Assembly: GCA_964424265.1 (NCBI GenBank)
Contig: CAYRHX010000001.1
Span: forward strand, 64,498 to 128,497
Reading direction: 5' to 3'
DNA length: 64,000 nt
DNA from: an uncultured Candidatus Saccharibacteria bacterium
Lineage (GTDB): Bacteria > Patescibacteriota > Minisyncoccia > Phycocordibacterales > UBA2100
Shown here: positions 43,402-47,458 of the stretch, piece after piece
How the letters are laid out: each line of letters begins with the position of its first letter
How positions within the stretch are numbered: position 1 is the first letter of the stretch
Notes under the pieces: model-generated
The model's database searches: none
What the model saw: only the letters and a program-made list of their open reading frames with translations
What the model was told of the DNA's origin: nothing
Program-made: the position numbers and the translations under genes

Positions 43402-43992
43402 CTACGCCGCTTTTTCTAGATGGCTCGATTCGTTGTCATTGGCTGCAGCGTCTTCAATAATTAAACGATTCTGATGTTCAGGAAAAGTGCGATACCGCTT
43501 AAACCCTTCTGATTGCGCTACTGGCCGAATATGAAGTTTGGAATAACTTTGCGCCCCCTTTTCAAGCTGTGTCAATGCACCGTTAATGAGGTTCACAATT
43601 ATTGACTGCTGCTCTTCCGAATCATTGGTGCTCATCCATAGGTTTTTGACCTCTGCGGTATGCGTACCTTTCTCGACAGAAATAAATCCGACTACTTTCT
43701 CTCCTTCTTTTGCCACGAGCGTCAATCCGCTACGCTCCGATACTCTCATCTCCTCCAATATATTATGGAGCGCCGTCTTTCGCTCCGAAATACTTCCACC
43801 TTTCGACTGGTCGAGTGTCGTATCCAGCGCATTCTTCTCCAGACCAGCGATTTGATGTTCATATTCGTTCAAACGAGCTCGCTCCACAACCTCTACTTGG
43901 ATACCCCGCGTCTCTGGCGACTCAGATTGAGACGCCCCCTTTCCTATCCCCTCTCCTCCTTTTGGCATCAACATATACAGGAATCGTAGCAC
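43402..43992 (-). CDS. Hypothetical protein with weak acetyltransferase-like features
   Basis: 196 aa. LTLVAKEGEKVVGFISVEKG is weakly GNAT-like. No confident motif. Confidence 0.4.
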   Translation of the reverse strand: MLRFLYMLMPKGGEGIGKGASQSESPETRGIQVEVVERARLNEYEHQIAGLEKNALDTTLDQSKGGSISERKTALHNILEEMRVSERSGLTLVAKEGEKVVGFISVEKGTHTAEVKNLWMSTNDSEEQQSIIVNLINGALTQLEKGAQSYSKLHIRPVAQSEGFKRYRTFPEHQNRLIIEDAAANDNESSHLEKAA

Positions 43993-44059
43993 ATTTATGT
44001 AAAAGGCAATGCCAAGCTCATTGTGCGCATTTAGGGACTAGGTCACAAATATCTCCTCG

Positions 44060-44330
44060 CCGCCGCTCGGACATTCCGCGACCCCGGCTCGCGGTTCGAC
44101 CTACTAGCCTCACGTCGCTCCGCCCTTCGAGTCCCTGCACTCTGCTGCAGAAATATAGTCGACCGACGCTCCGCGTCGTTCTCTTTATTTTTGCGCGAGT
44201 GAGACTCGGTCACAGATAATTCGTTTGCCGTTGCAAGCGAATTTCCGCGACCCCGACTCGGCGACCCGTTTGCTAACGGGTACCCCGCCTCCTTCTTTCG
44301 AGTTCCTTCACTTCGCTCCAAAATACAACA
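44060..44330. repeat. Degenerate tandem duplication carrying tRNA-Asp-derived fragments
   Basis: Two diverged ~80-nt units start at 44068 and 44243; each begins TTCCGCGACCCCG and contains CTTCGAGT(C/T)CCT(G/T)CACT(C)T(G)C, which resembles the tRNA-Asp T-arm/acceptor 3' half in inverted orientation. A direct partial copy of the tRNA-Asp 3' end (TTTTGCGCGAGTGAGACTCG) lies at 44189-44215. Confidence 0.5.
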
Positions 44331-44354
44331 AACCTAAAGACACGCTTTAGGTTT
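44321..44354 (-). terminator. Intrinsic terminator immediately 3' of tRNA-Asp
   Basis: Minus strand reads AAACCTAAAG-cgtgt-CTTTAGGTTT followed by GTTGTATTTTGG. Confidence 0.5.
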
Positions 44355-44363
44355 GGCGTTTTG

Positions 44364-44437
44364 CGCGAGTGAAGGGACTCGAACCCTCGACCTTTCCCGT
44401 GACAGGGGAACGCTCTAACCAGCTGAGCTACACCCGC
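44364..44437 (-). tRNA. tRNA-Asp (anticodon GTC)
   Basis: Minus-strand cloverleaf GCGGGTG...TTCCC-CTGTCAC-GGGAA...GAGGG-TTCGAGT-CCCTT-CACTCGC-G. Length 74 nt. Discriminator G, as in bacterial tRNA-Asp. Confidence 0.9.
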
Positions 44438-44518
44438 AGTATTCGCAACGATCGCACGACTTCATGCGACCGCGACACGCACACAATACTTGAAAAAACG
44501 AGTTCTATCAATCTCTCA

Positions 44519-44590
44519 TGCCGACGGCAGGGATCGAACCTGCGGCCCAGCCCTTATGAAAGGCTTGCTCTGCCACTGAGCTACGTCGGC
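44519..44590 (-). tRNA. tRNA with CAT anticodon: elongator Met or lysidine-modified Ile2
   Basis: Minus-strand cloverleaf GCCGACG...AGCCT-TTCATAA-GGGCT...GCAGG-TTCGATC-CCTGC-CGTCGGC-A. G1:C72 is paired, so it is not an initiator. Length 72 nt. Confidence 0.8.
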
Positions 44591-45279
44591 CTCTTGGGAT
44601 GCGCACCGAGTGCATCTATATAACCGAGAATTTTGTATTTCAAATCCGTCCCCCTTCTCACCCGCAGTGCTAAGACACCATAATACGAATTATGATTTTC
44701 GTAAACCTTCTTGTTCTTTACTTTTATGAACACGACCTTCCGAAATTGATTATACGGCATCTCAAGCAAGCGGGACCAGAATTGCATGATGACCCTCTCT
44801 CGCGATCGGTGTGATTCGTTGATAAACACCTGAGGTCGAAACATTTCCCTTGGGACACCGAAAACTAGTCGGAACCATTCCAGCATAAAGAGAACGAGGC
44901 CGGGATCTGAATTTGATATTGCCACCGTCCCCTTTCCTTTTATCCCCTCACCCCAATACACGCCGAGTCCTGCAAGAAAAATCTCGCGACGAGTCAGTAC
45001 GTGAAAATCACGGTACGCTTCGGCACGATGCCGAGCAATCGTGTCTTCTTTCTTCTTTTGATTCGTAGCTGCCCCATTGAGTTGCCCTCGCCGAACACCT
45101 CTCTCAGCACGCCTCATGAGTGTGTCTTTCTGCTTTTCGGTCAAAGCTATGTCTGAGCACCACACGCTAACGCTCGCACGAGAAACGCCGAGCTCGGTGG
45201 CAATCGAACGAATTCCCCATCCCTTCTTCCGAAGGACACGCGCACTAATCCGTTTTTCAGACTTTGCCATTATGTGCAT
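44581..45279 (-). CDS. HTH plus LAGLIDADG-like (homing-endonuclease-like) domain protein
   Basis: N-terminal transposase/resolvase-type HTH (RVLRKKGWGIRSIATELGVSRASVSVW). It is followed by FLAGLGVYWGEGIKGKGTVAISNSDPGLVLFMLEWF, which resembles a single LAGLIDADG motif with the following beta-strands. The 3' end overlaps the tRNA-CAT 5' end by about 10 nt. Confidence 0.45.
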   Translation of the reverse strand: MHIMAKSEKRISARVLRKKGWGIRSIATELGVSRASVSVWCSDIALTEKQKDTLMRRAERGVRRGQLNGAATNQKKKEDTIARHRAEAYRDFHVLTRREIFLAGLGVYWGEGIKGKGTVAISNSDPGLVLFMLEWFRLVFGVPREMFRPQVFINESHRSRERVIMQFWSRLLEMPYNQFRKVVFIKVKNKKVYENHNSYYGVLALRVRRGTDLKYKILGYIDALGAHPKRPT

Positions 45280-46821: not shown

Positions 46822-47044
46822 ACAGAAATAGTACCACGCACTCTAAAGCGTGCTGATGACCAACCCAGTCCTATTTACTACTCTTCGTGTTGCGGGGGGA
46901 GGCTCGGTCACCTCGAAATTGCGCCGTCGCACAATTTCTCCTCGACCCCGGAATTTTGGTTTTGCCTACTGACAAAACATCATAATTCCTTGCAAGTCCT
47001 CACACGAGGCGCGCAGGCGCCTCGTTCCTCGCACAATCCCAACA

Positions 47045-47084: not shown

Positions 47085-47090
47085 GTTGCG

Positions 47091-47403
47091 GGGGCAGGAC
47101 TTGCACCTGCGACCTCAAGGTTATGCATACCACTTCGACTTTGGCCGCGGCAAATCCCATAAAATTCACAGGACGCCTTCGTGGTCTGGACTATACCTTC
47201 ATCCCGTCGAATTGCCATTGCGGCAATCAGTCGGGAGCCTGCCATCTAGTCTCTACACCTTCTCTTCGATTTCTCTCAGAGCTTGGCTCGGTATTGCCAC
47301 TTCGCACAGCGGAAGAGGTTTCACCGAATTTGACAAGTGTTCCGATCACAATTACTCGTGAGCGAGCCCAATGTGAGCCTTGCGAGCTACTACTGCTCCA
47401 CCC
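47091..47403 (+). ncRNA. Structured RNA with tRNA-like termini; tentative tmRNA (ssrA) candidate
   Basis: 5' GGGGCAG at 47091 pairs with 3' CTGCTCC at 47393-47399, including a G3:U70 wobble. Discriminator A and CC follow. CAAGGTTATGCATACC resembles the E. coli tmRNA PK1 segment CAAGGUGCAUGCC. The region is ORF-free and hairpin-rich. No canonical T-arm or ...AA-stop tag frame was found, and the strand assignment is uncertain. Confidence 0.3.
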
Positions 47404-47458
47404 CGCTGCGAGAAATATACTACAAAAAGGTAGGAGCGCAATGTTCCGGAGGAAAAAA

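Follow-up and report, generated by a model that had tools for sequence, protein, structure and literature searches.

Tandem units behind a Saccharibacteria tRNA-Asp gene belong to a probable structured RNA family linked to tRNA 3' flanks

The DNA analyzed here is a stretch of 64,000 nucleotides from an uncultured Candidatus Saccharibacteria bacterium (contig CAYRHX010000001.1, positions 64,498 to 128,497), which is referred to as the window. On its minus strand, a gene with a helix-turn-helix (HTH) and a LAGLIDADG-like motif is followed by tRNA-Met(CAT) and tRNA-Asp(GTC), and behind tRNA-Asp lie two repeat units that carry copies of the 3' end of this tRNA. A preliminary description of the locus had proposed that these units are a decayed mobile-element insertion scar or the product of rearrangement by a homing endonuclease. 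By comparing the units with other genomes and combining sequence, structural, and covariation information, we find good support for a different assignment, in which both units belong to a conserved, structured, RNA-type family linked to the 3' flanks of tRNA genes. Loci of other genomes are cited below by number (L001 and so on) where they have to be told apart.

The repeat units behind tRNA-Asp

The ~330 bp between tRNA-Asp and the next minus-strand open reading frame (ORF), which starts at 43992, hold both direct units. Self-alignment of the window places them at 44021-44208 and 44189-44380, with a period of 167-171 bp. When the tRNA-like boxes are removed, the interiors of the units still align with a local score of 35, compared with a mean of 16.3 (standard deviation, 2.4; maximum, 32) for 1000 shuffles, and the tandem arrangement described in the preliminary description is confirmed. 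Tandem Repeats Finder reported no repeat in 43800-44700, as the two copies are too diverged. No ORF is present inside the ~170-bp units.

Read on the tRNA strand, each unit is bordered on both sides by copies of the tRNA-Asp 3' end, an inverted one at its beginning and a direct one at its close, and the stretch copied in the arms (S) extends from C56 to the end of the tRNA. The direct copy that had been noticed earlier reads TTTTGCGCGAGTGA---GACTCGG and includes an exact identity of 14 nt between 44189-44202 and 44359-44372; a further, degenerate one closes the distal unit, U1 (Table 1). The two inverted fragments, likewise described before, are the 5' arms of the units. The arm of U1 is 94% complementary over 17 nt to 44367-44383, and that of the proximal unit, U2, is 94% complementary to 44368-44383. 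The U2 arm can pair at 11 of 12 positions with tRNA-Asp, versus 8 of 12 with the downstream copy. Between the arms of U2, the core consists of a helix P2 with a first hairpin, the linker GGG, and a helix P3 formed by GUCGCGGAA ... UAUCUGUGAC. Single-sequence minimum-free-energy (MFE) folds of both units contain the same three helices (z=-4.9 for U2 and z=-3.0 for U1).

Over the core, U1 and U2 share 61% identity, and U1 is 74-77% identical to elements of other genomes. As each other's neighbor, U1 and U2 rank only 29th and 23rd of 56. Because each is nearer to elements of foreign genomes than to the unit beside it, the two are old members of the family standing in tandem, without a recent local duplication.

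Table 1. Positions of the tRNA genes, element copies, element parts, and HTH gene in the window
Feature	Position	Strand	Basis or remark
3' flank of U1	44021-44041	-	degenerate third copy of the tRNA-Asp 3' end, CUAGUCCCUAAAUGCGCAC
Element copy U1 (distal)	44028-44140	-	canonical family member; covariance model R1, 85.7 bits, E=1.3e-21, full length
5' arm of U1 (S')	44126-44145	-	GCAGAGUGCAGGGACUCGAA, antisense to the tRNA-Asp 3' end
GC-rich hairpin between U1 and U2	44164-44178	.	positional counterpart of the tRNA terminator hairpin
3' flank of U2	44189-44209	-	direct copy of the tRNA-Asp 3' end, CGAGUC---UCACUCGCGCAAAA, with a 3-nt deletion
Element copy U2 (proximal)	44195-44311	-	model R1, 78.0 bits, E=1.7e-19, full length
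5' arm of U2 (S')	44297-44316	-	GCGAAGUGAAGGAACUCGAA, antisense to the tRNA-Asp 3' end
Intrinsic-terminator-like hairpin with U run	44329-44355	-	11-bp stem, tail TTGTATTTTG; between S and the first antisense arm
tRNA-Asp(GTC)	44363-44437	-	ARAGORN; Rfam tRNA, 69.3 bits
tRNA-Met(CAT)	44519-44590	-	ARAGORN and Rfam; outside the RNA element
ORF of 232 amino acids, HTH with C-terminal LAGLIDADG-like domain	44581-45279	-	last 10 nt overlap tRNA-Met(CAT)
Third, degenerate element copy	46893-47005	-	model R1, 18.6 bits, E=0.0035; downstream of tRNA-fMet

A structured family at tRNA 3' flanks

The best-conserved block of both units is the 18-mer TTCCGCGACCCCGRCTCG, which occurs twice in the window, with 0.09 occurrences expected by chance. 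A scan for this 18-mer that covered one genome per species matched at least 120 loci. Among the matches listed, roughly half are chance occurrences in coding DNA of high-GC Actinomycetes or Proteobacteria with no structured tail (L009, L010, L012, L014, and others). The remaining ones come from Elusimicrobia and from Patescibacteria (the Candidate Phyla Radiation [CPR]), and all of these are embedded in the same architecture of ~100 nt; the CPR carriers listed comprise Saccharibacteria, Kaiser-, Taylor-, Nomura-, Adler-, Yonath-, Lloyd-, and Zambryskiibacteria, and Paceibacteria. With model R1, the family amounts to at least 96 copies in at least 77 genome loci of Patescibacteria and Elusimicrobia. 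The scores over the 77 loci form a continuum between 111 and 20 bits, and two or three copies, in part arranged in tandem, are present in several loci. This recurrence of the units as a conserved, structured element with compensatory changes overturns the earlier reading of the repeats as a scar. A 28-bit match to the model was also seen in a human gut metagenome-assembled genome (MAG) labeled Porphyromonadaceae (L076:3395-3506, minus strand), which could represent either a genuine member of the family beyond CPR and Elusimicrobia or a wrongly binned contig.

The elements are ~95-120 nt long, and their invariant core is CGAGNCGGGGUCGCGGAA ... UAUCYGUGAC. On the tRNA strand, the linear order is the 5' arm, (A)AAG-GNCGGAG, a variable hairpin, CGAG-N'-CGGGGUCGCGGAA, a second variable hairpin, UAUCYGUGAC, and the 3' flank. 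The fold is a three-way junction in which the 5' arm and the 3' flank form the closing helix, P1, and in which the linkers are AAG or AAA (J1/2) and GGG (J2/3). P2 begins with a covarying G-N-C/G-N'-C triplet, contains an internal loop, GGAG/CGA, that is invariant, and is capped by a variable hairpin. P3 is a long helix with an invariant base, GUCGCGGAA ... U(A)UCYGUGAC, which includes a conserved G.U pair, and with a variable terminal hairpin.

Covariation in support of this fold is strong. RNAalifold recovered P2 and P3 from an alignment of 57 sequences that included U1 and U2; with P1 added, 86.4% of the cells are paired, compared with 36-46% when the partners are slid by one to three columns, and none of 500 shuffles reached the observed covariation. 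The inverted terminal arms of P1 contribute ten pairs, each paired in 35-84% of the sequences (65-84% for the six nearest the junction), with compensatory changes in all of them. In a model-based alignment of 96 sequences, which leans towards structure, two-sided changes are found at 25 of the 27 pairs, and the middle pair of P2 appears as CG 36, AU 22, GC 20, and UA 4 times. Within P3, one pair is almost invariantly G.U and another alternates between G-C and G.U. As G.U pairs would be mismatches on the opposite strand, the structure under selection is that of the tRNA strand, which points to an RNA or, less likely, to single-stranded DNA.

In a sub-family (L036, L045, L065, L067, L094, and L033), GA(U/C)GAGAAAG replaces the usual ...UCGAAAG at the junction-proximal end of P1. 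The tandem sheared G.A/A.G pairs that this sequence could form suggest that the final 3-4 nt of this arm are part of the conserved core and not of the target.

Rfam 15 has no family that matches the units, either at the gathering threshold across the window or at E<=10 for 43950-44460 and for the canonical copy of L125; only tRNAs and chance miRNA-hairpin matches were returned. A search of the open-access full-text literature gave nothing relevant on tRNA-linked RNA motifs of CPR bacteria or on the core sequence string. The element family is new relative to both of these sources. Inspection by eye led us to dismiss a tRNA pseudogene, as there is no cloverleaf, and also the hammerhead, HDV, twister, and hatchet ribozymes, RNase P CR-I, 5S rRNA, a K-turn at the GGAG/CGA loop, and the 11-nt tetraloop receptor, as the invariant nucleotides do not fit and the Rfam models are unmatched.

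The link to tRNA genes is seen both in the position of the elements and in the sequence of their arms. Within 120 nt downstream of a same-strand tRNA lie 27 of 57 copies, a placement expected for well under 1% of random positions by our own estimate, which takes about 45 tRNAs per Mb. The host tRNAs have 13 specificities (Ser, Val, Ala, Thr, Gly, Ile, Glu, Asp, Pro, Leu, Lys, Met, and Arg), and the typical site in Patescibacteria is 10-75 nt behind the tRNA, usually past the terminator hairpin. Two classes can be distinguished. In class 1, the flank that follows GUGAC directly repeats the upstream tRNA, beginning at C56 in the T-loop and reaching the 3' end; this copy is perfect over 19-23 nt in about 10 loci (including L025, L045, L065, L067, L108, L122, and L125), and over 9-23 nt the 5' arm is complementary to the stretch so copied. 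In class 2, exemplified by L029, the arms derive from the junction of tRNA end and trailer, and the terminator hairpin occurs in duplicate, once on each side. The tRNA genes of the window and of L007-L125 do not encode CCA, many have CA after the discriminator (...ACA, ...GCAA), and the direct repeats of the elements usually take in these extra bases.

Where the direct copies have diverged, the 5' arm has kept its match to the tRNA itself: 10 discordant positions, 5 of them in U1 and U2, favor pairing with the tRNA and none favors the copy. In the MFE fold of the whole region from tRNA-Asp to U1, each antisense arm pairs with the tRNA-type end that precedes it and thereby encloses a terminator-like hairpin. 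The 5' arm thus has two possible partners, since the MFE fold pairs it with the tRNA-type end and P1 pairs it with the 3' flank. The copies in Elusimicrobia lie away from tRNAs (L013, L052, L064, L082, L111, L112, L114, and L118) and have a conserved nested hairpin of their own, GGCCCGG ... CCGGGCC, 5' of the core. Several copies are found per Elusimicrobia genome, and three of the loci come from one Elusimicrobiales MAG.

Comparison with relatives gives a view of gain, loss, and decay. L001 is the closest relative, with a syntenic locus and 70% protein identity in the HTH ORF. There, the space from tRNA-Asp to the next gene holds just the terminator, and the repeats are absent; L006 likewise lacks the tRNA-Asp copies. 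A locus of tRNA-Met, tRNA-Asp, and tRNA-Thr is filled in L128 and empty in L148, with flanks of ~80% identity, and the simplest reading of this pair would be an insertion after the terminator and not in the T-loop. The part of the earlier scar proposal that stands is that the repeats are direct and inverted copies derived from a tRNA 3' end and that what they belong to is both gained and lost at tRNA genes; a decayed attL/attR pair does not describe a structured family that has no integrase.

The third element copy of the window is the degenerate one listed last in Table 1. Its arms, GGACUUGCA and CCCCCGCAACA, match the tRNA-fMet 3' end, P2 is rebuilt as GGAAUU/AAUUCC, and the invariant loop is gone. 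The orthologous copy behind tRNA-fMet in L001 (5553-5669) is well preserved, with 71.7 bits. The tRNA-fMet of the window is an initiator-type tRNA(CAT) at ~47086-47407 on the minus strand, in which a group I intron of ~250 nt (~47124-47375; Rfam RF00028, 58.3 bits, 47174-47385) splits the anticodon loop, and it was missed by ARAGORN for this reason. The orthologous tRNA-fMet of L001 (5401-5473) has no intron, and the intron is therefore polymorphic between relatives. From tRNA-fMet to the HTH gene, the window also has two genes more than L001 (45631-46821, minus strand), which encode a membrane protein of 171 amino acids (UPF0114/TIGR00645) and an ORF of 174 amino acids without a family match.

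The HTH and LAGLIDADG-like gene before tRNA-CAT

As had been noted in the preliminary description, the 3' end of the HTH gene overlaps the tRNA-CAT gene, and the same overlap occurs in L001. The N terminus of the ORF is an HTH by weak Pfam matches (HTH_23, HTH_7, and Terminase_5), and the motif that had been called LAGLIDADG-like is FLAGLGVYWGEGIKGKG. The C-terminal domain is marked by an invariant YWGEG ... NSDP signature and by a conserved KVYENH..YYG module. Across 63 family sequences, G104, Y108, W109, E111, and G112 are invariant or nearly so, and the motif helix ends in a conserved acidic residue.

Profile searches of the PDB led repeatedly to the LAGLIDADG endonuclease I-DmoI, which accounts for all 9 matches of the domain-only profile and for 7 of the 11 matches of the full-length profile, the others being weaker and to the HTH. 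The best of these matches is weak (E=0.003, 20 bits, 57-77 residues, domain 2 of I-DmoI). It aligns E111 with the Glu of the I-DmoI motif LYVAEGDK, the catalytic residue E117. The AlphaFold models are of high confidence (pLDDT, 90.7 and 87.4) and have the order alpha-beta-beta-alpha-beta-alpha, followed by a beta-beta-alpha extension. Foldseek found no LAGLIDADG structure in the PDB, Pfam LAGLIDADG_1/2/3 and the WhiA LAGLIDADG family did not match the ORF (E<=10), and no LAGLIDADG family of Pfam matched any of 24 domain-only members. The domain may accordingly be called LAGLIDADG-like, with the weak support that these profile matches lend, but its membership is unproven.

The motif helix ending in an invariant acidic residue and Gly (YWGEG) and the predicted order of the core are shared with LAGLIDADG endonucleases such as I-DmoI and I-CreI. 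In contrast to these, the ORF has a single such domain, an N-terminal HTH, and the extra C-terminal KVYENH..YYG module, and its gene is free-standing before tRNA-CAT and not within an intron or intein. WhiA is a fusion of LAGLIDADG and HTH domains, and in this it resembles the ORF, which however has no match to the WhiA profile.

The gene belongs to a large family, with 98 matches to the single sequence, 2042 clusters matched by the domain profile, and at least 518 loci in JGI metagenomes, which were retrieved with a profile of 34 closer sequences. Among the matches listed, the only names are "hypothetical" and "HTH domain," and those with a taxon label are from Patescibacteria or from bacteria of undetermined phylum. 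The best 120 of the 2042 domain-profile clusters are all close family members, and no bridge to annotated LAGLIDADG proteins is present among the matches listed.

The position of the gene relative to tRNA-CAT is strongly conserved. In metagenome loci with enough room, a same-strand tRNA-CAT starts within 60 nt past the end of the gene in 64 of 75 cases and within 300 nt in 70 (93%). ARAGORN also places a tRNA-CAT, on either strand, upstream of the gene in about 30 of 80 loci, and in 17 of these it lies no more than 130 nt away. Just 12 of the 80 gene-family loci contain the RNA element, at variable positions. Conversely, tblastn of the HTH ORF against 60 element loci found 4 weak homologues, and the order gene-tRNA-element is repeated only in L056. 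The tRNA downstream of this distant homologue is tRNA-Ile(TAT). As the gene retains the same synteny in relatives without the tRNA-Asp repeats (L001 and L006), and as the element is found in so few loci of the gene family, the HTH gene is not part of the RNA element but represents a separate, conserved Patescibacteria family tied to tRNA-CAT.

Origin and meaning of the elements

The nearest analogue of the tRNA-Asp units is, by comparison of layout, the rtT/tyrT arrangement of E. coli. The tyrT operon contains repeats of 178 bp, each with a copy of the tRNA-Tyr 3' end. The likeness thus lies in an element RNA 3' of a tRNA gene (rtT is RF00391 in Rfam) and in tandem units of ~170-180 bp, each with a tRNA 3'-end copy of ~19-23 nt. 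The element differs from rtT in having no RF00391 match at E<=10, in its core, a three-way junction whose GUCGCGGAA/UCYGUGAC stem is invariant, in its antisense arm to the tRNA and its occurrence behind 13 kinds of tRNA, and in its distribution in Patescibacteria and Elusimicrobia, whereas rtT is found in Enterobacteria. Repeats of the REP/REPIN, ERIC, Correia, RUP, and MITE types resemble the element in being multi-copy, non-coding, and patchy, with hairpins, inverted arms, and tandem or clustered copies. Its arms, however, are templated from the adjacent tRNA and are not fixed termini, its core spans phyla with RNA-type covariation and G.U pairs, and its copies within a genome are 61% identical, not near-identical. 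With riboswitch aptamers built on a three-way junction, such as the purine riboswitch, it shares a variable P1 that closes two hairpins, an invariant junction, and an alternative partner for a P1 strand; unlike them, it lies 3' of tRNA genes and not in mRNA leaders, and it has no conserved downstream gene and no Rfam riboswitch match. Attachment (att) sites in the T-loop of tRNA genes, finally, also have a direct repeat from the T-loop to the 3' end that flanks inserted DNA and leaves the tRNA intact; they differ from the element, whose segment is ~110-170 bp long, free of integrase, and itself a structured RNA with an inverted copy of the tRNA end, and for which no viral or integrative parent was found in 60 loci or in IMG/VR. 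The element fails the tests that define each of the last three groups.

A search for proteins that might act with the element was negative. ORF clustering over 60 element-bearing loci gave no protein family that is consistently adjacent and no real neighbor in more than 6 loci (at distance 0, the only clusters consist of spurious ORFs running through the element), and no integrase or recombinase lies in or near the units among these loci. In IMG/VR viral contigs, the 18-mer matched 6 loci, all by chance in GC-rich DNA, and R1 gave one partial match of 18.6 bits, with no genuine copy; this null result argues against a phage or integrative parent.

On balance, we lean towards a small, non-autonomous element under RNA-level selection that colonizes tRNA 3' flanks, by a mechanism that we infer. 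We favor this reading because a templated mechanism is needed to match arms to 13 tRNA types, because the element is patchy in relatives, because many copies decay while the core of the family is invariant, and because nothing is co-encoded with it. It can be hypothesized that the tRNA 3' end serves such an element both as the targeting and as the closing-arm sequence, that transcription on the tRNA strand would come from read-through or from an unrecognized promoter, and that single copies would decay while the family persists, as only intact cores would propagate. The machinery that moves the element would not be encoded beside it. Several observations weigh against such an element. It has no associated transposase, integrase, or reverse transcriptase, and the copies within a genome are old and diverged, with no recent burst. 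A strong intrinsic terminator separates tRNA-Asp from U2, with no promoter-like site found between the two. The difference between L128 and L148 can be read as loss instead of gain, and the extreme conservation of the core over two phyla would also fit a function for the host.

Such a host function is the alternative that deserves most attention, and we regard it as possible but doubtful. The element would be an RNA of the tRNA operon, co-transcribed with the tRNA, whose tRNA-like end lets RNase P, RNase Z, and the CCA-adding enzyme release a stable small RNA; or its antisense arm would pair in turn with the tRNA 3' end and with the downstream copy and so act as a maturation switch, with the junction binding a ligand or protein. 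It would be in keeping with this that the tRNA-adjacent copies are immediately downstream and on the same strand, that the direct copy stops at the 3' terminus of the tRNA, that the arm has two partners and is paired with the tRNA in the fold of the whole region, that its complementarity has been kept to the real tRNA (10 positions versus 0), and that variable helices surround invariant junction nucleotides as in a riboswitch, in a core conserved between phyla. There is also a precedent, since a passage of PMC4986893, citing Bosl and Kersten 1991, has rtT RNA released from tRNA-operon transcripts in processing. Arms of 13 specificities, however, require a templated copying that a purely cis-evolved regulator lacks, and the decay of many copies, the patchiness among close relatives, the terminators between tRNA and element, and the Elusimicrobia copies away from tRNAs all speak against it.

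The remaining explanations fare much worse. For T-loop-type tRNA att sites, the identity block is expected to begin in the T-loop and to stop at the tRNA 3' end, and the direct repeats at tRNA-Asp do extend from C56 in the T-loop to this end; together with the presence or absence of the element at L128 and L148, this could suggest attL/attR-type scars of integrase-mediated integration and excision. What lies between the repeats, however, is a core of ~110 nt that is conserved across phyla with RNA-type covariation, an antisense arm is foreign to att sites, the core is absent from IMG/VR viral contigs, none of the 60 loci has an integrase in or near the units, and the insertion in L128 would lie past the terminator and not in the T-loop, so that we consider this reading largely refuted and very unlikely. 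Still more improbable is that the HTH and LAGLIDADG-like protein is an active homing endonuclease that makes or mobilizes the repeats, as had also been put forward. Its gene is two tRNAs upstream of them, its invariant Glu aligns with that of I-DmoI, and L056 repeats the order of gene, tRNA, and element, yet the gene keeps identical synteny where the tRNA-Asp repeats are absent, the 12 of 80 family loci with an element show variable distances, the gene family is tied to tRNA-CAT and the elements to 13 tRNA types, and elements are present in Elusimicrobia, whereas the taxon-labeled gene matches listed are only from Patescibacteria or an undetermined phylum. A simple local tandem duplication of the tRNA-Asp trailer, of no wider significance, would explain two adjoining units of similar length but is already refuted and retains almost no probability, as each unit is closer to elements of dozens of other genomes than to its neighbor and both are full-length family members by R1.

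It could be speculated, as a tentative extension, that the element represents a new class of RNA in which the 5' arm is a putative guide against the 3' end of a specific tRNA. Such an RNA might be an RNA-guided mobile element that re-templates its arms for each target, or a conformational switch or ribozyme located 3' of a tRNA and acting in the maturation of the upstream tRNA. We know of no described precedent for an RNA-guided mobile element of tRNA ends or for a 3'-located switch of tRNA maturation.

The genomes of Patescibacteria are tiny and have little space for selfish or regulatory DNA. Despite this, the element is present in several copies per locus or genome (three in the 64-kb window), with an 18-nt core that is unchanged over two phyla. 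That its arms are copied from, and kept complementary to, the 3' end of their own tRNA implies a mechanism of templated targeting or pairing. For RNA biology, the family offers a testable three-way-junction motif, for which about 100 examples, a covariance model, and naturally occurring sites in the filled and the empty state are available. The element may also explain some of the assembly breaks and annotation gaps beside tRNA genes of CPR bacteria, and the more than 2000 clusters of HTH and LAGLIDADG-like proteins, whose genes almost always precede tRNA-CAT, constitute a conserved linkage of gene and tRNA that is as yet unexplained.

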